The notes: generated by a model from the sequence alone, not told the origin. Positions 7,986 to 20,961 are shown, counted from the first letter of the stretch. The stretch: 32,000 nt of DNA from Candidatus Thorarchaeota archaeon (GCA_048882505.1 JBHLRO010000002.1:420563-452562); one strand, 5' to 3'. Numbers and translations: made by a program.

Positions 7986-10007
7986 GTGCAGACGAGTTCG
8001 AAGGGATGCCAATCAATGGGTTCGGCAACTAAATCTCGAAATAAAGTGGAAGAAATCAAGAAGCTAGCCGATCAAATCCTTTTTCACAAAAAAAAGTACT
8101 ATGACGGCGAACCTGTTATTTCTGATGAAGCTTATGATTCACTTGAAGATAAACTTCGGAAACTTGATCCGACCAACCCCGTTCTGTTTATGGTGGGTAA
8201 TAATGAAGCAGGAAAGGTGTTTCATGACCCCCCCATGCTTTCGAGCCAAAAAACAACGAGTATTGATGATGTCGTGAAATGGAGCGGGGGACGAGACCTC
8301 ATGGTTGGAAATAAGATTGATGGAGTATCCTTATCATTAATCTATGAAAACGGTAGGCTTATCCAAGCGGCCACCCGTGGAAATGGTACCATGGGAGATG
8401 ATACGACTATTGCAGCAATGAAAGTGACTGCCATCCCTAAATCGGTCCCTGAAATCACCCTTAGGCTCAATATCAGAGGGGAGCTATTTATGCGGCTCTC
8501 TGAATTCGCTCGTATTAAAAAAACGGAATCGGATCAGTATAGCAGCCCGAGGAATCTAACAGCAGGGACCATAAAGCAAAAAGATCTTGGCTTACTGGAT
8601 AAGCGAGTTCTTTCGTTTGGTGCGTTTGAACTCCTCGGATTAAGGGATGAGGAAGCAACTCTGGAAGAGAAAGTTGATCTCTTGCTCGAATGGGGATTCG
8701 AAACCACCGAATTCAAACTGTTAAAGTCTCCCTCAAAAGAGTCTATCGAAGCCCTTTATCGGAACACGGTATCAGCACGAGGGAACCTTGATTTCGAAAT
8801 AGACGGGTTAGTTCTAAAGTATAACGATGCCAAAGAACGAGCCAACGCGGGCGCAACGGCTCATCATCCTCGATGGATGATGGCACTAAAATTCCGAAGT
8901 CAAGGAAAACTATCACAAGTTAACAGTATCACCTGGCAGGTTGGGAGATTAGGAACGATAACACCTGTGGCTGAATTGGAGCCAGTTGAAGTAATGGGAG
9001 CCGTTATCCAGAGAGCTACGCTACATAATGCTGATTTCCTAGAAAGCCTTGATGTTGCACCAGGAGATAGCGTCTGGGTTATCAGATCCGGCGATGTTAT
9101 ACCGAAAATCACTGAGGTGGTTGAAAAGGGCCCTAATAGCGTGTTACTGCCATCTCGATGCCCAAGCTGTGACTCAAAACTACGACGTGACGGTGTCAAT
9201 TTGCTCTGCGCTAGCCCAATATGTCGCGACAGAGAAATCCAACGAATCCGTCACTGGATTAAAATTACAGATATTAAAGGACTAGGCACCAAGAATGTTG
9301 CCAAATTGTATGACAACGAGCTGATAAGACATTTCGCAGACCTTTATGACAAAAACCTGACCGAGAGAAAACTGGTTTCATTATTAGGAAAAAACGGGTC
9401 CAAAATCTTCCAAAGTATTCAGGAGACTAAGAACATACCCTTCCACCTGTTTCTTGCAGGTTTGGGCATTAAAACTTTAGGAAATCAGATGGCTAAAGTT
9501 CTCACAAAGCACTTTCCTACATACGAGGCCTTGAAAAATGTAACTGCTGATCAGTTGATGGAAATAGAGGGGATTTCAGAGATCACCGCCAGGAAGATTC
9601 TTGAAGGGCTCCATGATCCCATGTTGGCTGATCACTTGCTTGAGAAGGGAGTAATGATTTCTGAAGGTCCGAAGATATCAAAGAGGGAGTCTCAATCCCC
9701 AACGCGACTAACGAATTTCTTTGAATCACAAGACAAGTCCCCAGAATACGAAATTCGATCTCAAGAACCAGAAAATTTAGAGGATTTACCCAAGGTTTAT
9801 GTTACAGGTGCGATTCCTGGGATGACAAAGAAAGAAGTTCAAACTTTTCTAGAGCAACATAATTACGAATGGGCTGGAATATCAAAAAAACTAACGCTTC
9901 TCATCGTTGGGGAAAAACCAGGCAAGAATAAGCTAGAAAAAGCACAAAAATATGGTATACCTCAAAAATCCTGGGAAGATTTCATGAAAGAACTTCGCCA
10001 GCGATAA
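7986..10007 (+). CDS. ligA: NAD+-dependent DNA ligase (bacterial LigA type); probable start ATG 8016
   Basis: Domain Ia YYDGEPVISDEAYDSL, adenylation motif KIDG, ATRGNG, RGE, DGLVLK, OB-fold WQVGRLGTITPVA, RATLHN, RSGDVIP, Zn finger CPSC...C...C, HhH repeats (GLG, IEGI) and a C-terminal BRCT domain (VYVTGAIPGMTK...KLEKAQKYGI). Confidence 0.97.
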   Translation: MQTSSKGCQSMGSATKSRNKVEEIKKLADQILFHKKKYYDGEPVISDEAYDSLEDKLRKLDPTNPVLFMVGNNEAGKVFHDPPMLSSQKTTSIDDVVKWSGGRDLMVGNKIDGVSLSLIYENGRLIQAATRGNGTMGDDTTIAAMKVTAIPKSVPEITLRLNIRGELFMRLSEFARIKKTESDQYSSPRNLTAGTIKQKDLGLLDKRVLSFGAFELLGLRDEEATLEEKVDLLLEWGFETTEFKLLKSPSKESIEALYRNTVSARGNLDFEIDGLVLKYNDAKERANAGATAHHPRWMMALKFRSQGKLSQVNSITWQVGRLGTITPVAELEPVEVMGAVIQRATLHNADFLESLDVAPGDSVWVIRSGDVIPKITEVVEKGPNSVLLPSRCPSCDSKLRRDGVNLLCASPICRDREIQRIRHWIKITDIKGLGTKNVAKLYDNELIRHFADLYDKNLTERKLVSLLGKNGSKIFQSIQETKNIPFHLFLAGLGIKTLGNQMAKVLTKHFPTYEALKNVTADQLMEIEGISEITARKILEGLHDPMLADHLLEKGVMISEGPKISKRESQSPTRLTNFFESQDKSPEYEIRSQEPENLEDLPKVYVTGAIPGMTKKEVQTFLEQHNYEWAGISKKLTLLIVGEKPGKNKLEKAQKYGIPQKSWEDFMKELRQR

Positions 10008-10276: not shown

Positions 10277-12538
10277 ATGTCTTATGAGTATTATGGCGAA
10301 GAAGAAGATAGGCGTACTTGGAAGGCCATGCCACTCCTGCAGGCGCTTCTCGTATCTATTCTCATCCCTGTTGTTTTGGCAGTTGTTTTTACATTTGCTG
10401 GAGCGGCAACCAATCCACTCTTACTACAAATTGAACTAATTCTGGTCGCTATCGCGTTTTGTTCGATGGGAATTCTCACACGTTCCAAACTACGTGGCTT
10501 CCTTAACATTATAACGGCCCCTATCTCTTGGGGAATCCTTTATCTAGCAGACACGCTCACTGGCGGCTTTATTGCCAATCCATATGGGCTAATTTCAGGA
10601 CTTGCAGAACCCTTGGCAGCAATCGCGCAAAGTCCTTATTTCAGTGATTTAGCTGCTTACATGGGTATAATAACTCAGATCGCAATTATCGTTGACCTGA
10701 TCATTATAGAACTTTTTGCCTTCTTTTTGGGATATTTCCTTGCGATGTTGGCAACAGGCTTATGGAAGAAGGACGGGAGTTTCGCAGTTATTTCTATCCC
10801 CTTTAAACTAATTGCCGCGGCCTTTGTTATTGGGATTCTTGCAATAGTCCCCTTTGCGTACCATGGTATTGGAACCCTTGCTGATGGTGGAATATCATTA
10901 GGTGCGGGGGCGACCGAATTCATAGGTATGTTTGGGGCCGATCTCGCAGGCGGAGGATCACAAGCTGGGCTCCCTTTGGATTTAAACAATGCGACGGTTC
11001 TGGCTGAACTTAGCGCCGCAGCGGCACGAGCAGAAGCCTGGTTTCGAAGATCCAGTATCTCTTTCAGGCATGCCCAAGAGAATATCTTGATCCAAGCTGC
11101 GCTCAACGCCCTCTTTCCCGAAGGTTCTAACCTTCAGGGGCTCAATATGCGTGAAATCACCTCAATACTTTCGATCTCCGACATTCTCGTAGATATTTCT
11201 AGCGAACTACCTGCTCTCTTAGCAGGGTACCAGAACTTTGCTAACGGATTCGACATAACCTTTTCCATCCTTGGCCAAACCAGTATTGGAGGAGGCCAAG
11301 GGGGTTCAATTGAGACAGCTCTTGCGATTTATGACCCATATTTTGTGGTCGGACTCAATAACATGTCAGCCGCGCTCGAAAATTTTACCGATGCCCAAGA
11401 TGGGATTTTAGATGCAATCGCTGGAGCCAGTGAAATTATCAATAAAATTATCGTTGACCAAACTAGTGATTTCGCAGTAATTACGGATATTATAGACGAA
11501 ATGCAGGCATTTTTCCCAGTTCTTCTCGACGTAGCTCGTGGTGGAGTCTTCTTTTTGAATGGTACATATAAGACTGCATTATCGATAGAAGATATAGGTG
11601 GAAACGATTTTGATGGGGCAAGCACATGGTTAGGTAGTGCAGCTCAAGATCTAGGCAGTGCGAATTCAACTCTACAGAATGTGAATACTTCTGGTCTTAA
11701 TCCCGATTCTCCTCTACCGTTTTGGGGTACGGTGGAGATTATCAGAGATCTTGTGAATTTGCTAGGATGGTTTACTCGCGCTGCTGCCAATACCACTGAA
11801 TGCTATACGCGGATCGATGATGTACTTATAAGCTTGAATGACCTGGATTTCCAGGGCACCTCGGTTCTCGCTACCAACTGGGATAATCTTTCAGCAAATG
11901 TGTCAGCAGCTAATACCATTTTTGACGCAGCTCAGTTTAACATTGGCCAAGCTACCAGCCTCAGCAACCAATTAAGCAGTAAGAGCTATGGACCCATTAT
12001 AGATGGAAGCCTCGGTTCTGCAATTACCGACTTTTCGACCATGATGATGCAGTTTACCCAAAATATCACGGAAGTGGATTATCTCTTGGATGCATTGGAA
12101 GCTACCGTATTCGCCATCCAATCATTCACAGAAGGATTTGCCTTGTTTAACAGCACCTTTAGTTATGCGAGTAACAACTCTGCGGACGGACCTACCTTCA
12201 TATCACTTCTCACTGGGAACACAACGTGGAACCAAACAAAGGATAAGTTTGGGTACAGCATCGCCAACGCCTCCCTAGGATGGATTGCTATTGACACGAC
12301 CACCGTCATAGCCGGGAGTGTTCGGACATCGTGGAAAAACATGCTTTACACCCCGTCTTGGCCGATTACTCCTCCTACTGAACCCTCAATTGCTGGGCTC
12401 TCTCAAACAATTTTGGACCTAATGGCCGCAATAGAATTGCTTGCTAATTATGCCATTAAAGAAGATAAAGCCGGATTGGTCAAGACTGCTTTCGAGAATA
12501 TGGAAAACAATGATCTATCGACGATTTTCGGCGGTTGA
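10277..12538 (+). CDS. Large membrane protein: N-terminal multi-TM region plus a long, acidic, alpha-helical extracellular region
   Basis: About 5 hydrophobic segments in the first ~200 aa, then ~550 aa rich in A/S/T/N/D/L with about 15 N-X-S/T sequons. Confidence 0.85.
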   Translation: MSYEYYGEEEDRRTWKAMPLLQALLVSILIPVVLAVVFTFAGAATNPLLLQIELILVAIAFCSMGILTRSKLRGFLNIITAPISWGILYLADTLTGGFIANPYGLISGLAEPLAAIAQSPYFSDLAAYMGIITQIAIIVDLIIIELFAFFLGYFLAMLATGLWKKDGSFAVISIPFKLIAAAFVIGILAIVPFAYHGIGTLADGGISLGAGATEFIGMFGADLAGGGSQAGLPLDLNNATVLAELSAAAARAEAWFRRSSISFRHAQENILIQAALNALFPEGSNLQGLNMREITSILSISDILVDISSELPALLAGYQNFANGFDITFSILGQTSIGGGQGGSIETALAIYDPYFVVGLNNMSAALENFTDAQDGILDAIAGASEIINKIIVDQTSDFAVITDIIDEMQAFFPVLLDVARGGVFFLNGTYKTALSIEDIGGNDFDGASTWLGSAAQDLGSANSTLQNVNTSGLNPDSPLPFWGTVEIIRDLVNLLGWFTRAAANTTECYTRIDDVLISLNDLDFQGTSVLATNWDNLSANVSAANTIFDAAQFNIGQATSLSNQLSSKSYGPIIDGSLGSAITDFSTMMMQFTQNITEVDYLLDALEATVFAIQSFTEGFALFNSTFSYASNNSADGPTFISLLTGNTTWNQTKDKFGYSIANASLGWIAIDTTTVIAGSVRTSWKNMLYTPSWPITPPTEPSIAGLSQTILDLMAAIELLANYAIKEDKAGLVKTAFENMENNDLSTIFGG

Positions 12539-13786: not shown

Positions 13787-15187
13787 TTGTATTTCCTTCT
13801 TAAAGAAACTGATTATTCTTATCTAAGCACTCAATTGCCTCAATTTAAGAGGTATCTGCCAATGATCTATGGTGTAAATCCAAACTGGCGGAAAAACTGC
13901 ACCCAAGATGTTACAAGCTCCAATGACGGAGCAAAAGTTCTCATCAGCGGATGGGTTCAACAAATAAGGGATAAGGGCAGTCTGGTCTTCCTAACGATTC
14001 GAGATGCCAAGGGAATCTGTCAGGTAACGCTTCACAAGAAAAAAGCCACAGCTCAGGTCTGGGAAAAATGCCAAACCCTGACACTGGAATCTGTTGTTTC
14101 TATTGAAGGTCAGGTTAAAAGAGATCCGCGGTCCCGACTTGGGGCTGAGCTAATTCCCTCCAATATTTTGATTCACTCTCTGGCATCGCATAAATTCCCG
14201 ATTGATCTGACTAAGAAAAAGACAAAGATGGATCTGGATACCATTTTTCGGTACAGGGAGCTGTCCATACGTGATCCCGATGTCATAGCTGTAATGGAAA
14301 TGAAACATCTGATTGCTCAGGTTACACGAAAATTTTTTACAGAAAAGGGATTTGTTGAGATCTTCACTCCCTTGATCCTAGCTACATCCACCGAGGGAGG
14401 AGCTGAGCAGTTTACTTTAGACTATTATGGGGTTCCAGCTGTCCTCGCTCAATCATGTCAATTTTACAAACAAGCGGCTCTCGCCTGTCATGAGAAGGTT
14501 TTTGGGATAATTCCATCCTGGCGAGCAGAAAAATTTCATACTCCGAGACACTTGGCTGAATTCTGGCAGGTAGAAAATGAAATTGCGTTTGCCACCGATG
14601 CTGAGATTATGAATGTTCAAGAAGATTATATTGTTTCAGTATTAGAATACGTTGTGTCCCACGGTGCCCCCCAATTAGAGAGATTGGGGCGAGAAATTTC
14701 TATTCCCTCAAAACCGTTCAAACGCGTTCCTTTCGCGAAAGCAAAGGGGATGCTCACCGAATTAGGAGTGGAAGAAGAACCAGATGAAGATTTTGGAGCC
14801 CCTGGTGAACTGGCCCTGTCAAAGGTTTTCAAAGACCCATTTTTCATTATCGACTTCCCTACTAGAATACGTGGCTTGTATTATGCCCGCAATCCAACCA
14901 ATCCAAATATCACGCGATCTATTGATCTCATTGCCCCTGAAGGGTTTGGCGAGCTTTCCAGCGGTGGGCAACGTGTTTCTAATCCTGAAACACTCAGAAA
15001 TCGAATATCCCAAAAAGGGTTTAATGAGGCCGACTTTGCTTGGTATCTACGGATGTTTGAATTTGGGATGCCCCCCCACGCGGGATTTGGTCTAGGTTTC
15101 GAACGTCTTGTTCGCTGGATAACGAATGTTTCGCATATCAGGGAAACTTCGATGTTTCCGCGAACCCCAGAATTGTATCAGCCATGA
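13787..15187 (+). CDS. Class IIb aminoacyl-tRNA synthetase, archaeal AspRS/AsnRS family, with mixed signature motifs (likely start ATG 13862)
   Basis: OB-fold GWV..IRD.G...F..IRD, motif 1 GFVEIFTP, TEGG, QSCQFYKQ, motif 2 WRAEK...RHLAEF, ELSSGGQR and motif 3 PPHAGFGLGFER. Asp versus Asn specificity cannot be settled from the sequence. Confidence 0.9.
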   Translation: MYFLLKETDYSYLSTQLPQFKRYLPMIYGVNPNWRKNCTQDVTSSNDGAKVLISGWVQQIRDKGSLVFLTIRDAKGICQVTLHKKKATAQVWEKCQTLTLESVVSIEGQVKRDPRSRLGAELIPSNILIHSLASHKFPIDLTKKKTKMDLDTIFRYRELSIRDPDVIAVMEMKHLIAQVTRKFFTEKGFVEIFTPLILATSTEGGAEQFTLDYYGVPAVLAQSCQFYKQAALACHEKVFGIIPSWRAEKFHTPRHLAEFWQVENEIAFATDAEIMNVQEDYIVSVLEYVVSHGAPQLERLGREISIPSKPFKRVPFAKAKGMLTELGVEEEPDEDFGAPGELALSKVFKDPFFIIDFPTRIRGLYYARNPTNPNITRSIDLIAPEGFGELSSGGQRVSNPETLRNRISQKGFNEADFAWYLRMFEFGMPPHAGFGLGFERLVRWITNVSHIRETSMFPRTPELYQP

Positions 15188-15204: not shown

Positions 15205-15993
15205 CTAAATTCCTCTAAAAAGTTGAAAATGCAGTCTTAATATAAACATCCACGCCCAGAAGGGGAAAAGGGGGTGAACCGGATAGTTATTACGGAACTT
15301 AAGAAATTCACCTATACACACATCCTCTGCTTTGTAAGCTTTAACAATTTGTAGAGGTGTAAAGTACATTGCATTATGGTAATTTCTCCATGTAAATAGG
15401 CTCCATTTAACGGCTTCCATTGAGAATTTGATGATTTGAGGATGAATGAGAGATAAGGCGAGGGCTCCTGTTGCTAGGAGCCATGTCATAAAAAAAGATT
15501 TTGTGATATCCCACTTTGTTAACGTTGGAAGCTTCGACCAATTAGCAAACACGTTTTTCCCCCAAACGATTCGATGTTGGCGTAACAACGACATCCAAAC
15601 TGAATTTTGGGGCGCTAATACGGCGCTCAAGATCCGGTTGACATTAAACACTTTAGAAAATCTTCTTTGCTCAAAATCAATTAGTCTACAGACAAAACAA
15701 TTCGCGAACATCCCAGTCGATGACTGTAAACTTCGTATAAGATTGATATCATACTCCTGATCAATAAGCAGCGCCCTTTCAATTTTAAAGACAGATTCTT
15801 TGATAATTTTTAGTTTTTCGTCAGAACAGTGATCATGCATGACAATAAGCAGGTCAACGTCAGTCGACCGAGAATCTTTACTTGGAAAAGAAACCGACCC
15901 GAATAGGATTACTGCTATGAGATCATGATGATGGTGGGTTTCTAAATAATCTATTACTGATTCGATATACCGACGGGTATGTGTGCGATTCAT
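15205..15993 (-). CDS. Pol-beta-superfamily nucleotidyltransferase with a C-terminal helical domain
   Basis: VILFGS...STDVDLLIV (GS plus DxD) at the N-terminus. The C-terminal half is helical. Confidence 0.8.
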   Translation of the reverse strand: MNRTHTRRYIESVIDYLETHHHHDLIAVILFGSVSFPSKDSRSTDVDLLIVMHDHCSDEKLKIIKESVFKIERALLIDQEYDINLIRSLQSSTGMFANCFVCRLIDFEQRRFSKVFNVNRILSAVLAPQNSVWMSLLRQHRIVWGKNVFANWSKLPTLTKWDITKSFFMTWLLATGALALSLIHPQIIKFSMEAVKWSLFTWRNYHNAMYFTPLQIVKAYKAEDVCIGEFLKFRNNYPVHPLFPFWAWMFILRLHFQLFRGI

Positions 15994-16765: not shown

Positions 16766-18208
16766 TTATCCTTTCACTACACCAACTGGCTTAACCTGGA
16801 CAACTTTTTTTACCACGCCAGAATCGTGCATGGCATCCACTACTTGTTCTACGTCCTTGTAGGCGCCAGGCGCTTCTTCCGCTACCCCCACGTATGAATG
16901 TGCTTTAACGACAATTCCGCGTTCAGCTAATTGTCGTACAATATCCTTACCATAGTACTGTTTTTTTGCTCGTTTGCGCGACATACTACGTCCAGCGCCG
17001 TGGCATGCACTACCAAAGGTTTCCTGCATACCCAATTCAGTTCCTGTTAAGATATAGGATGATGTACCCATGGTTCCACCGATAAGGACGGGATGACCCA
17101 CAGCCTTATATTTTGAAGGAACTTGAGGGTGCTCAGGGCCGAATGCTCGCGTGGAGCCCTTTCGGTGAACTAAAACTTTTTGACCGTTGTGAGTCTCAAA
17201 TTTGGATGTATTATGCCCGACATCATAAAGCTGGCGAACTTCAGTCCCTAGAACCTTGTGAACGGTCTCACGGACCAGATGAGCAATCACCTGTCGGTTT
17301 GCAAACGCGCAATTAATCCCTGAATTTACCGCCGCAATGTAATCTTGACCCTCCTTGCTTGTAATCGGGGCTGAGCCCAATTCTTTGTCAGGTAGTGGTA
17401 GATTGTATTTTTCGGAAGCCTGAACAAGAACTTTAGAGTAATCGGTTCCAATTTGGTGACCCAAACCTCGAGAGCCGCAGTGCATCGTTATCAAGAGCTG
17501 CTCTGGGAATAATCCGAATTCTTTGGCAATAGCCTCATCAAATACCTTACTTACCACTTGCAGCTCCAGATAGTGGTTACCTGACCCTAATGTACCGATC
17601 TGGTTATATTGCCGCTTCTTCGCTTTCAAACTGACTTTTTCGGGATCTGCTCCTTCAATACGTCCATTTTCTTCTGTGTACTCGAGATCCCCTTCAATTC
17701 CATACCCTTTTTCCACCATGTACCTTGCCCCTTCTCTCATTAGCTCATCTACTTGGGGAATCTCAAGCTCGATCTTTCCGGCTTTACCAAGTCCTGCCGG
17801 GATTGTCCGAAACAACTCGTTCATTAACTCTTTTTTCTGCGGGTTGAGATCAGACACAGTAAGGTCGGTTAACATGGTACGAACTCCGCAATTTATGTCG
17901 TAACCAACACCTGCCATACTTACTACCCCTTCCTCTGCATCAAATGCGGCTACACCACCGATTGGGAATCCATAGCCTGGGTGGACGTCTGACATCGCCA
18001 ACATACCGCGCTGAATGCCAGGTAATGATGCTACATTCATAATTTGGCGAGTCGCACTCCAATTACGGGTATAATCGCGCTCGAGTTCCTCAATGATAGC
18101 CTGGTCACCATAAATATATGCTGGCACCCGCATATCCCCTCTCTTTTCGATCGTCCAGAGATTCTTTCTGTTTTCCACTTTTTTAAAAATATCAGATCCT
18201 TCTGTCAT
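16766..18208 (-). CDS. rtcB: RNA-splicing/repair ligase RtcB
   Basis: MSDVHPGYGFPIGGV, GYDINCGVR, LGSGNHYLE, HCGSRGLGHQ, HN, HRKG, SACHGAGR, EEAPGAYK. Confidence 0.97.
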   Translation of the reverse strand: MTEGSDIFKKVENRKNLWTIEKRGDMRVPAYIYGDQAIIEELERDYTRNWSATRQIMNVASLPGIQRGMLAMSDVHPGYGFPIGGVAAFDAEEGVVSMAGVGYDINCGVRTMLTDLTVSDLNPQKKELMNELFRTIPAGLGKAGKIELEIPQVDELMREGARYMVEKGYGIEGDLEYTEENGRIEGADPEKVSLKAKKRQYNQIGTLGSGNHYLELQVVSKVFDEAIAKEFGLFPEQLLITMHCGSRGLGHQIGTDYSKVLVQASEKYNLPLPDKELGSAPITSKEGQDYIAAVNSGINCAFANRQVIAHLVRETVHKVLGTEVRQLYDVGHNTSKFETHNGQKVLVHRKGSTRAFGPEHPQVPSKYKAVGHPVLIGGTMGTSSYILTGTELGMQETFGSACHGAGRSMSRKRAKKQYYGKDIVRQLAERGIVVKAHSYVGVAEEAPGAYKDVEQVVDAMHDSGVVKKVVQVKPVGVVKG

Positions 18209-18625
18209 TTATACATCCACCAAACATTGAGCTATCCATTTGTTGTCCGTAGTTTGTTTTATCTGTAGCTGGGTCCAGGTAGCTGCTTTAACCTCCAGTT
18301 TGAGTTTATGGCGGTCAATATTTATCGGTTCACCATAAATTTTGGCGACCAGACTGGTATCACTCAATTCTTCAACCTTGAATTGACCGTACATTTTTCC
18401 TTCAACATCTTTCAAATACAGGAGTTCACTAAGCCATTCTAGAAGCAACTCCTCCTGGTTTGATGCCTTTATCTCGATTATCTCGGGTTCACCCAGCTGG
18501 AGGTCTTTTGTTTCCACCATAATCTCGAACATAGCAAGAGCTACCTGTTCAAATGCTTCTAACAAGGTTATACCGATACCTCTAACACCAATGTCCGCTT
18601 GATGCTCAAAATACTCATAAGACAT
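18209..18625 (-). CDS. Archease (RtcB activator)
   Basis: YEYFEHQADIG, LLEWLSELLY, EVKAATW and C-terminal LVDV. Its stop abuts the rtcB start (TAAATG). The conserved N-terminus favours ATG 18625 (or 18631) over the track start at 18658. Confidence 0.93.
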   Translation of the reverse strand: MSYEYFEHQADIGVRGIGITLLEAFEQVALAMFEIMVETKDLQLGEPEIIEIKASNQEELLLEWLSELLYLKDVEGKMYGQFKVEELSDTSLVAKIYGEPINIDRHKLKLEVKAATWTQLQIKQTTDNKWIAQCLVDV

Positions 18626-18762
18626 AGGCATCGACTCCAACCACGCGAAAAACTCCACGGATTTACTACTTTATGAACTTAGAACTTGGGTTGGCCCTGA
18701 AAGCCTCTGATGAAGAGTATTATGATTCGAAAAATAAGGCCCTGCCTAAAAGAAGAGAGTCC

Positions 18763-18813: not shown

Positions 18814-20664
18814 TTAGCGTTCTTTGCGCCTTTGTACGACTATCACTGCAAGAATGGGTAGAGCAATTACTGCCACGACTAGATCAAAGCCTGGAATAGG
18901 AGCTGTACCCGTTCCGTCACCACTTACTGATCCTGCGACCGCAGCATACGTGGGGTCATGTGTAATACTCTTACCACCCCACTGTGGATAAGAAACTGAG
19001 TATAGGAACGTTTTTCTCTCAACATTACCCCGAATTCCGCGGATCATATCGGCTTCACTAGATATCTGTCCATATGCGAAGTCGATCAAGCTCATCGGGA
19101 TAAGTTGCCCTGTGGCATAAACATCAGTTGACCCATCCCATTTGTAGGGGATATCATCCAACCTGATCTCGCCAAAGGATGCTTGACTGTCACTAAATCG
19201 GATTCTTTGTACACGTGACGTGTTTTCAAACTGATCACTGATCTCGGTGTCATTATCGTCGGCCCGCCAGCGGATTACTTCTTGTTGTTTCGCATCTACC
19301 ACAGTAGAGGCCATCAACTGATTGAAAGATAAGCCTGTGAGCTGACTAGATGTATCCCACTCGCCTATAACATAATCAAACTTAAGATTCGCGGTTCCAT
19401 CGTCAACACTGAAATGAAACAGGGTCGACACTTCATCAATCGTGTGGAGTCCCGACACACTTTCATTAAACATGCTTATGTCTTGATTTCGTTCAATGGG
19501 GCGCAGAAAACCCTTCACATTGGCAAAATCGGAACCAAAATCCAAAATGTTGTTCGTAGTTGTCGGAGGGTGATAGGTTCGTGTATCTATGGAGTGTGTA
19601 TCAAAACGGAAGAGAGCTTCATCCCCGATGGTCGGATAAACAAACGAATTTTGGCCGATTGTAACGTTTTTAACGCCAATGTCCATATATCCGTTATTGT
19701 TGGTGTCATTATAGACCAAACTGCCCAAGAGATGATGTTCAATATACTTATAGTCGAAATCGTTGATTAGTAGTCTTTGTCCGATCTTACGTAACGTGAG
19801 CTCATTAATTTGAAGTTGAGACACTGAAAATCGACCGCGTCGGAAGGTCCGAGCATCATTACTGACCCAGTTTACATCGGGATGCGCAAAAGTACGCATC
19901 TGGTTAACCGAAGGAAGACGGAAGAGTAATCCAAGTTCCCTGGCGAGCCATTCATGAGATGTCAGACGAAAAATAAATCGCTTCAATAGCGTAGCATTGG
20001 AACCATCGTTGTATTGCCACTCATTTTGAACAATATACTTTCCTCTAACTTCGTCCTGCACCAATGACATAAATACACTCGTGAGGATTTCATCGCCCGT
20101 AAAGGGTTGGGTATCTAGAGTTTCATTGTTAGCGATTTTGGTGAATGCCTCAATAACGGATCTATCCTGGTCATAAAAAATTGAAACTGCTTTACGATCG
20201 TGTGTACTGTTTATCGCTAGCTGTGAATCGACGTTTTGGTTGATGGAGAGTGTTGTCTTGCCTTGCACTTCATTGTACAGGTTTGTTAGATACGTTTTTG
20301 AGTCATTCTCTACCGCGGGATCGTTTTCAATGGCGTTTATTGTTTCGCTTAAAACGTTAATAAAACGAGCGAGGAATATGTTGTGAGTTCTAGTACGTAC
20401 GCCAGTTACTTGGTATTCATAGGATCCAACGCTGTTATAAACATCAAAGTAAACGTTATCAGGCGTGAAATTCGCACTTTGCATACCATGTATTAACCAG
20501 AGTAGGTTGCTATGAAGTTGAGTTCGCATGATGCCTTGTGGACGCTCTGGAACGATGGGGCCAGTCTTAGTTTGACTTATTGTTCCTGTGCTTGGTAGTA
20601 TTGCCGACGCAATAAGCAACCAACACATCGTTGCCAATATTAGACTTTTTTGAGTTTTACTCAT
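18814..20664 (-). CDS. Cell-surface glycoprotein with a signal peptide, a DxDxDG-like loop and a PGF-CTERM-like anchor
   Basis: From ATG 20664: MSKTQKSLILATMCWLLIASAILPS (signal peptide). It contains YNDTNNNGYMD and ends in PIPGFDLVVAVIALPILAVIVVQRRKER (PGF, TM helix, basic tail). The ORF track extends it to 20766. Confidence 0.85.
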   Translation of the reverse strand: MSKTQKSLILATMCWLLIASAILPSTGTISQTKTGPIVPERPQGIMRTQLHSNLLWLIHGMQSANFTPDNVYFDVYNSVGSYEYQVTGVRTRTHNIFLARFINVLSETINAIENDPAVENDSKTYLTNLYNEVQGKTTLSINQNVDSQLAINSTHDRKAVSIFYDQDRSVIEAFTKIANNETLDTQPFTGDEILTSVFMSLVQDEVRGKYIVQNEWQYNDGSNATLLKRFIFRLTSHEWLARELGLLFRLPSVNQMRTFAHPDVNWVSNDARTFRRGRFSVSQLQINELTLRKIGQRLLINDFDYKYIEHHLLGSLVYNDTNNNGYMDIGVKNVTIGQNSFVYPTIGDEALFRFDTHSIDTRTYHPPTTTNNILDFGSDFANVKGFLRPIERNQDISMFNESVSGLHTIDEVSTLFHFSVDDGTANLKFDYVIGEWDTSSQLTGLSFNQLMASTVVDAKQQEVIRWRADDNDTEISDQFENTSRVQRIRFSDSQASFGEIRLDDIPYKWDGSTDVYATGQLIPMSLIDFAYGQISSEADMIRGIRGNVERKTFLYSVSYPQWGGKSITHDPTYAAVAGSVSGDGTGTAPIPGFDLVVAVIALPILAVIVVQRRKER

Positions 20665-20961
20665 TTTTCTGTCCCTATTATCCTGATTATCATTCTGTTG
20701 AATGCATGTGATAATGAAATGTTCCCTTCTTAAATCGCGTCTTATACGATTATTGAACACGGCCATAAGGAGTTTTTTTATTTATTTCAGCCATTTTGTA
20801 TGAGTTTTTCTTCAGAGAAGGTCATATAAATCTGAATACGATGATTTAATTATAAAAACACGCTGAACAGGAACATCTGGCAAAAAAGAAGTTTCATTGA
20901 ATGAGATAAAATTGGAAGTGGTGTTTCAACAGTAATAATTTCTGATGGTGTAAAAACCAGG

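Follow-up and report, generated by a model that had tools for sequence, protein, structure and literature searches.

Which amino acid does a synthetase serve when its active site bears the marks of two families? The question is raised by a gene in a 32,000-nucleotide stretch of archaeal DNA (GCA_048882505.1 JBHLRO010000002.1:420563-452562, deposited as Candidatus Thorarchaeota archaeon; hereafter, the window), whose product had been described in the original prediction as a mosaic of aspartyl-tRNA synthetase (AspRS) and asparaginyl-tRNA synthetase (AsnRS) signatures, and possibly as an intermediate lineage, an AsnRS reverted to aspartate, or a paralogue with another role. The host is a Heimdall-group (Hodarchaeales) Asgard archaeon. 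The enzyme is probably its sole and essential AspRS, a member of an undescribed archaeal-type lineage, here called K+E, which would be nearer than any other AspRS to AsnRS and the AsnA-like proteins and whose AsnRS-like traits would be ancestral; its specificity we infer from sequence comparison and gene content.

The protein is a class IIb synthetase encoded by an intact open reading frame (ORF) of 441 codons plus a stop. An in-frame TTG at 13787, 25 codons upstream of the ATG, is a second possible start, and the ATG matches the homologues, which are 441 aa long and begin at the same codon. All three class II motifs and the OB domain are intact in the full-length product; its class II D/K/N catalytic core (PF00152) spans residues 126–435 according to Pfam and has no GAD insertion, and an AlphaFold2 (AF2) model built from 44 homologues has a predicted local distance difference test score (pLDDT) of 92.3 and a predicted template modeling score (pTM) of 0.90. 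The elements on which the argument turns are as follows, with AspRS-like and AsnRS-like states assigned by HMMER alignment to Thermococcus kodakarensis AspRS (3NEL/1B8A) and Pyrococcus horikoshii AsnRS (1X54):

13862–15187, plus strand: aspS-like gene, assigned to the K+E type of archaeal AspRS (NF003483, 418 bits; Pfam PF01336 and PF00152).
13937–14134, plus strand: OB-fold anticodon-binding domain, residues 26–91 (PF01336, 45.5 bits; AF2 strands E25–106, pLDDT >90).
14123–14143, plus strand: loop DPRSRLG, residues 88–94, with Arg92 aligned to T. kodakarensis Lys85 (pairwise and homologue alignments).
14450–14473, plus strand: QSCQFYKQ, residues 197–204, with Gln197, Ser198 and Gln200 in the amino-acid pocket and Lys203 as the predicted carboxylate ligand (alignment).
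14513–14533, plus strand: motif 2, PSWRAEK, residues 218–224, with the class II residues Arg221 and Glu223 (alignments).
14570–14581, plus strand: VENE (within EFWQVENE) with Glu238, aligned to the Asp of AspRS SIDSE and to the Glu of AsnRS LELE.
14933–14974, plus strand: APEGFGE, part of LIAPEGFGE (residues 356–364, from nucleotide 14927), and ELSSGGQR (364–371) (alignments, per-site log-odds).
15041–15109, plus strand: WYL (394–396, AsnRS-like), FGMPPH (401–406, of which GMPPH is AspRS-like) and motif 3, GFGLGFERL (alignments, log-odds).
15155–15169, plus strand: FPRTP, residues 432–436, AsnRS-like, where canonical archaeal AspRS has FPRD (alignments).

Every motif that the original prediction had quoted (QSCQFYKQ, ELSSGGQR, FGMPPH, RAEK, WYL, FPRTP and DPRSRLG) is found in the translation where it had been placed, and the alignments to 3NEL/1B8A and 1X54 uphold the family to which each had been assigned; LIAPEGFGE is likewise present, its start alone needing correction, as 14933 is the A of APEGFGE and the full motif begins at 14927. 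The catalytic positions that had been singled out as unusual are also there: Cys199 occupies the place of the proline of AspRS QSPQ, and a tryptophan replaces the usual phenylalanine of motif 2. The RAEK that follows it is AsnRS-like, canonical AspRS having RAEE, and the two-residue insert in APEGFGE aligns without gaps to AsnRS and with a two-residue gap to AspRS; a W....HIR segment is a further AsnRS-like stretch. On the other side, ELSSGGQR is of the archaeal AspRS kind, with Arg371 as a side-chain ligand common to both families, and the E-L-I-P segment behind the L1 loop is also AspRS-like.

The two families read their substrates differently: a survey of aminoacyl-tRNA synthetase–ligand structures found that the aspartate carboxylate is read in AspRS by a lysine and an arginine, and the asparagine amide in AsnRS by a glutamate and an arginine, with a leucine/water arrangement replacing the lysine (PMC7387524). 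Because Lys203 and Glu238 align to these ligand roles, the predicted pocket is a genuine combination of the AspRS lysine with the AsnRS glutamate. This pattern is not a product of chance, since K203, E238 and R371 are invariant, together with the class II motif residues, in a 19-sequence alignment across the clade, and the motif set, including the insert, WYL and FPRT, recurs in about 110 homologues. The best database matches, at 92% to about 50% identity, come from metagenome-assembled genomes (MAGs) labelled Heimdallarchaeota, Hodarchaeales, Kariarchaeaceae and Promethearchaeota, and all of them have the mixed motif set; the clade as a whole spans 39–92% identity, and the mixed motifs are also kept in a subgroup of 438-aa proteins (43–47% identity) and in two proteins labelled Nanoarchaeota. 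A second family also has the K+E type, in two of its genera, and the 438-aa subgroup is present in 12 of the 12 genomes of a third, so that the lineage ranges over Hodarchaeales, some other Heimdallarchaeia and a few relatives in DPANN-labelled MAGs. A pattern scan of named genomes, which left out the Heimdall genomes and in which one pattern also matched ordinary AsnRS, is not a census of the clade; it returned AsnRS and AspRS references and three near relatives, from Woesearchaeota, Bathyarchaeia and Geothermarchaeota. Database names within the clade are inconsistent: aspartate--tRNA(Asn) ligase (NCBI pipeline), nondiscriminating AspRS and AsnRS all occur.

Compared with each family as a whole, the protein is nearly equidistant. 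The NCBIfam model for archaeal AspRS, NF003483, fits it best (cut-off 353 bits), and both AsnRS models score it under their cut-offs (NF003037, 341 versus 414 bits; TIGR00457, 295 versus 343). A phmmer search of the PDB ranks T. kodakarensis AspRS first, at 315 bits, and P. horikoshii AsnRS next, at 292; by Foldseek, template modeling (TM) scores are 0.90 to the former and 0.92 to the latter, with archaeal AspRS structures at 0.90–0.92. This near-equality in sequence and fold is unlike both controls, of which a canonical archaeal AspRS (P0125) scores 839 bits to AspRS versus 294 to AsnRS in the PDB search, and an AsnRS-like enzyme of the type called EE here, with glutamate for both the lysine and the aspartate of AspRS (P0114), scores 273 versus 376.

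A recombinant chimera of aspS and asnS genes would also have mixed signatures, and the genome that encodes the target holds an AsnRS gene as well. Per-site log-odds of the target residues, calculated from one profile of 73 canonical AspRS and another of 36 AsnRS sequences, nevertheless give no block structure and no single breakpoint: residues typical of the one family are interspersed with those of the other in both domains, each domain has a slight preference for AspRS (+0.28 and +0.20 bits per site), and the log-odds in sliding 21-residue windows swing between about −0.7 and +1.2. Patches that resemble AsnRS are short (341–371 and 411–431), with 358, 359 and 363 among the most AsnRS-like positions and 366 AspRS-like. 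In addition, the pattern is conserved through the whole depth of the clade, the target is about 36% identical to the type of AsnRS found in its own genome, and its place in the tree does not change without the motif columns. The absence of a breakpoint and the depth of the clade therefore argue for shared ancestry rather than recombination, and a chimera is highly improbable. The mosaic thus holds as a description of mixed signatures and fails in its recombinant sense.

Where the lineage belongs was examined with several trees. A FastTree phylogeny, in which each 50%-identity cluster of an exhaustive phmmer search has one representative (163 in all), puts the K+E clade on the side of AsnRS. 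The main tree was calculated with IQ-TREE under LG+C20+F+G4 (posterior mean site frequencies, PMSF) from 72 rows, rooted on Escherichia coli AspRS and archaeal class II LysRS, with support given as ultrafast bootstrap (UFBoot)/Shimodaira–Hasegawa-like approximate likelihood ratio test (SH-aLRT). It recovers K+E as a clade (100/97), whose sister (97/86) unites the AsnA-like/K+D-odd proteins (100/99) and AsnRS (100/99), the joint clade being supported at 100/99. Canonical AspRS, including the T. kodakarensis-type sequence, forms a separate clade (97/89), within which also lies a sequence of unverified origin with eukaryote-type AspRS motifs. A wider clade (100/94) encloses the K+E/AsnA-like/AsnRS group together with lineages that have the AspRS lysine and aspartate (K+D) and already possess RAEK, WYL, FPRT and the insert; three of these types, P0112, P0126 and P0127, branch just below K+E. 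The same grouping was obtained with 94 rows, after removing all motif regions (327 columns; SH-aLRT 97), and after adding named references, which were Paenibacillus and ARMAN-5 AspRS and the AsnRS of Thermococcus, Promethearchaeum MK-D1 and E. coli; these three AsnRS fall within the AsnRS clade, and the target outside it. Forcing K+E into canonical AspRS was rejected by the approximately unbiased (AU) test (delta lnL 42.8, p-AU 0.0034). The target therefore nests in no characterised AspRS or AsnRS clade, and so escapes the refutation named in the original prediction; of the three options given there, the intermediate lineage is the best supported.

The second option takes the enzyme for an AsnRS in which the lysine was restored and which assumed the AspRS role after the original aspS had been lost. 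Such a history would suit the scaffold, most of whose motifs are AsnRS-like (RAEK, the insert, WYL, FPRT and the lack of proline in QSxQ), and ELSSGGQR or ELTSGGQR and GMPPH are also present in the EE enzymes and in the LE enzymes of Bathyarchaeia, both basal to AsnRS. It is not favoured by the tree, however, where K+E falls outside AsnRS and outside AsnRS plus the AsnA-like proteins at the supports given above; RAEK, WYL, FPRT and the insert, being already present in P0112, P0126 and P0127, predate AsnRS; and, taken overall, the residues of both domains favour AspRS. Reversion is accordingly very unlikely.

What the enzyme does in its cell was approached through gene content. In the window's genome (4.3 Mb, 94.6% complete), only three genes match PF00152: the target, a canonical AsnRS on contig 13 (L001:1156-2454; QSSQLYLE, EIIGASQR; TIGR00457, 388 bits versus a cut-off of 343) and, on contig 1 (L003:1441-2382), a 313-aa AsnA-like protein that consists of the catalytic domain only and scores above the NF005054 cut-off. 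Another member of the genus, with a closed genome of 4.94 Mb (G217), has exactly two such matches, a K+E protein and an AsnRS, and this pair is present in the retrieved representatives (G217, G136 and G207) of the 18 genomes in the genus, with counts and sizes in the others that fit. The survey took in 50 further genomes of the class, and 80 loci were retrieved from Asgard genomes; no canonical AspRS was found beside the K+E type in the 32 Heimdallarchaeia genomes that carry it, one of them closed, whereas canonical K+D AspRS and AsnRS make up the set of the other Heimdallarchaeia families. Since AspRS is required and the target is the sole candidate in its genome, it would be the housekeeping AspRS. 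The same 32 genomes contradict the third option, a paralogue with another role. A non-translational function, for instance as an asparagine or other amide synthetase or as a regulator, is scarcely credible: although the wider clade includes a protein made of the catalytic domain only (P0123, 296 aa, K+E), and the AsnA-like proteins are neighbours in the tree, the target retains its full length, OB domain and three class II motifs, and neither its genome nor the closed relative has another AspRS candidate.

The partner genes also bear on the tRNA. By profile search, GatA was not found in the window's genome, where the sole GatB_N match is a GatE-sized frame of 657 aa; GatCAB was not found in five K+E genomes, in which GatB_N matches are only GatE-sized and no GatA exceeds the cut-off. 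With an AsnRS of its own and GatCAB not found, the cell would be expected to have a discriminating AspRS, and the target probably is one. Its loop DPRSRLG, which had been likened to the discriminating type, fits this inventory, while discrimination itself we infer. Lysine occupies the Arg92 site in most Hodarchaeales homologues, and Gln34 of the target stands at the T. kodakarensis Trp26 site; a Trp26/Lys85 rule for discriminating AspRS (T. kodakarensis numbering) was reportedly set out by Feng et al. in 2003. Aspartate would then be activated with the help of Lys203 and Arg371, both conserved AspRS ligands, and loaded onto tRNA-Asp, and Asn-tRNA would be made directly by the cell's own AsnRS.

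Several observations weigh against the housekeeping, discriminating AspRS proposed here and against its placement. The stricter AspRS model TIGR00458 gives 348.5 bits, under its cut-off of 368.4. Glu238 is the residue that AsnRS uses for reading the amide, and some activation of asparagine is possible. No tRNA-Asp(GUC) was found in the window's genome by ARAGORN with or without introns, by Rfam RF00005 or by two pattern scans; tRNA-Asn, tRNA-Glu, tRNA-Gln and tRNA-SeC were found there, the tRNA-Asn at contig 16, 58102–58175, many of the tRNAs have introns, and the gap is probably an assembly or intron problem. The Rfam tRNA scan of the closed relative covers 150 of its 318 candidates. As to the tree, the group used in the AU test was chosen after inspection, the rooting depends on two outgroups, whose long branches join each other, and the anticodon domain by itself (110 columns) gives no resolved placement and bears neither way on recombination. 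Finally, a Woesearchaeota member nested inside the K+E clade has aspartate at position 238; the D/E state is therefore labile and a weak marker of history.

Some of these points would suit an enzyme of relaxed specificity, a functional as well as historical intermediate whose pocket activates both aspartate and asparagine or which also charges tRNA-Asn. Besides the amide-reading role of Glu238 (PMC7387524), the name aspartate--tRNA(Asn) ligase given by the NCBI pipeline, the records labelled AsnRS, and the AP.G loop of the 438-aa subgroup and some Heimdall members (such a loop is characteristic of AsnRS and non-discriminating AspRS) are in line with it. But the invariant Lys203 would favour a carboxylate, and with a dedicated AsnRS and GatCAB not found, Asp-tRNA-Asn would be a dead-end product of mischarging; the Hodarchaeales loop has lysine or arginine at the T. 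kodakarensis Lys85 position, reportedly a discriminating feature, and the interchange of aspartate and glutamate within the clade suggests a conservative change in a pocket that keeps its lysine. Relaxed specificity thus seems unlikely, and a housekeeping AspRS function remains the preferred reading.

On that reading, a subgroup of AspRS would first have acquired what may be called the AsnRS scaffold, and AsnRS and the AsnA-like synthetases would then have arisen within that subgroup, leaving K+E as the surviving AspRS branch nearest the origin of AsnRS. The AsnRS-like traits of the target (Glu238, no proline in QSxQ, RAEK, APEGxGE, WYL and FPRT) would be ancestry that predates the loss of the lysine in AsnRS, a residue that would have given way afterwards to glutamate in the basal EE forms and later to leucine or other residues. 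A bolder version takes the K+E enzymes as the living AspRS stock of AsnRS and of the archaeal AsnA-like proteins, with a pocket that activates both aspartate and asparagine and, together with the EE enzymes, a path from K,D through K,E and E,E to L,E; this version is possible but doubtful.

Several observations concern the relatives met along the way. The AsnRS of the window's genome scores higher to eukaryotic cytosolic AsnRS (human, 402 bits; Brugia, 383; Entamoeba, 366) than to that of P. horikoshii (330), and groups (100%) with long, N-terminally extended AsnRS sequences that have eukaryote-like motifs. The 313-aa AsnA-like protein of the same genome groups with 444-aa full-length K+D-odd paralogues (TTSMILYKQ, FPKVPG) of some Heimdallarchaeia. 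Paralogues reduced to the catalytic domain exist separately for the K+E, EE and LE types (P0123, 296 aa; P0167, 297 aa; P0177, 304 aa), which suggests that AsnA-like proteins were born repeatedly from full-length synthetases. The EE type was met at L053, L055, L056 and L085 (Asgard family f16), in P0114–P0121 and at L089 (Geothermarchaeota); because these enzymes are basal to AsnRS in the main tree and coexist with a canonical AspRS, they are probably the unusual AsnRS of their genomes. An N-terminal extension of about 500 aa is fused to AspRS-like catalytic units in proteins of 880–950 aa (G007:C23 (L058), P0122, P0135, P0138 and P0141), and in G007 the fused form occurs alongside a canonical AspRS. 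G202 and G204, of Heimdallarchaeia family f6, each encode two GatB_N proteins of GatE size (about 650 and 665 aa). In another MAG from the order to which the window's belongs, the end of a contig (G219:C381, L007) carries a bacterial-type AspRS fragment (CFRDEDLR, GGGSIRI), which may reflect contamination or transfer.

Elsewhere in the window, positions 7986–10007 (plus strand) encode a 673-aa NAD-dependent DNA ligase of the bacterial-style LigA type, with adenylation, OB and helix-hairpin-helix (HhH) domains. Two genes past the synthetase, an RtcB tRNA-splicing ligase adjoins an archease, its known activator, in the standard archaeal pair (16766–18658, minus strand). Pfam gives no match for the ORFs at 10277–12538 (plus strand), 15205–15993 (minus strand) and 18814–20766 (minus strand), which are 753, 262 and 650 aa long; the 753-aa product has a membrane-rich N-terminus.

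AsnRS is regarded as a late derivative of archaeal-type AspRS, and AS-A-type enzymes have been tied to its emergence (PMC4206432, PMC8001834); the history proposed here is in accord with both views. In the literature searched, with most subscription journals outside its coverage, no description of the K+E lineage was found, and no extant AspRS lineage was named as the nearest relative of AsnRS. As a variant of archaeal AspRS, K+E is real, conserved and apparently undescribed, and its position in the tree is informative; it is not a new kind of system. The clade offers a natural start for testing which substitutions switch specificity from aspartate to asparagine and is also useful for testing the proposed link between AsnA-like proteins and AsnRS; its recognition would improve the annotation of proteins now variously called aspartate--tRNA(Asn) ligase or AsnRS. 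Were the dual-activity stock version true, the stepwise emergence of an amino-acid specificity new to the genetic code could be replayed experimentally. Hodarchaeales are a proposed close relative of eukaryotes, and the pairing in this order of an odd AspRS with a eukaryote-like AsnRS has a bearing on eukaryote origins.

In comparison with known systems, the target has the two-domain architecture and length of T. kodakarensis AspRS (1B8A/3NEL), to which it is 38% identical, and has in common with it the lysine of QSxQxYKQ, the arginine of GGQR, ExSSGGQR, GMPPH and a basic residue at the Lys85 position of the loop. It differs in having glutamate at the aspartate of SIDSE, cysteine for the proline of QSPQ, RAEK for RAEE, the two-residue APEG insert, WYL for FYL, FPRT for FPRD and glutamine for Trp26, and the canonical AspRS, the T. 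kodakarensis type included, form a clade separate from its own. With P. horikoshii AsnRS (1X54; 35% identity) it has in common the glutamate of the amide site, the APEGxGE insert, RAEK, WYL, FPRTP and W....HIR; unlike AsnRS, it keeps the lysine (leucine, or glycine, alanine or glutamate, in AsnRS), has SSGGQR for IGGSQR and GMPPH for GSVPH, and coexists with a genuine AsnRS in its own genome. The archaeal AsnA-like asparagine synthetases (AS-AR; 3P8T/1NNH; NF005052/NF005054) have a related catalytic domain, the target scoring 232 bits to NF005052, but usually lack an anticodon-binding domain and have a degenerate QSxQ, whereas the target is a full-length synthetase. The EE enzymes (QSAQxYEE, ELTSGGQR) of other Asgard archaea, Geothermarchaeota and related MAGs, at 38–41% identity, share with the target the insert, ELxSGGQR, GMPPH, Glu238 and FPRT; they differ in that glutamate replaces Lys203, that they are basal members of the AsnRS clade, and that their genomes also hold a canonical AspRS.

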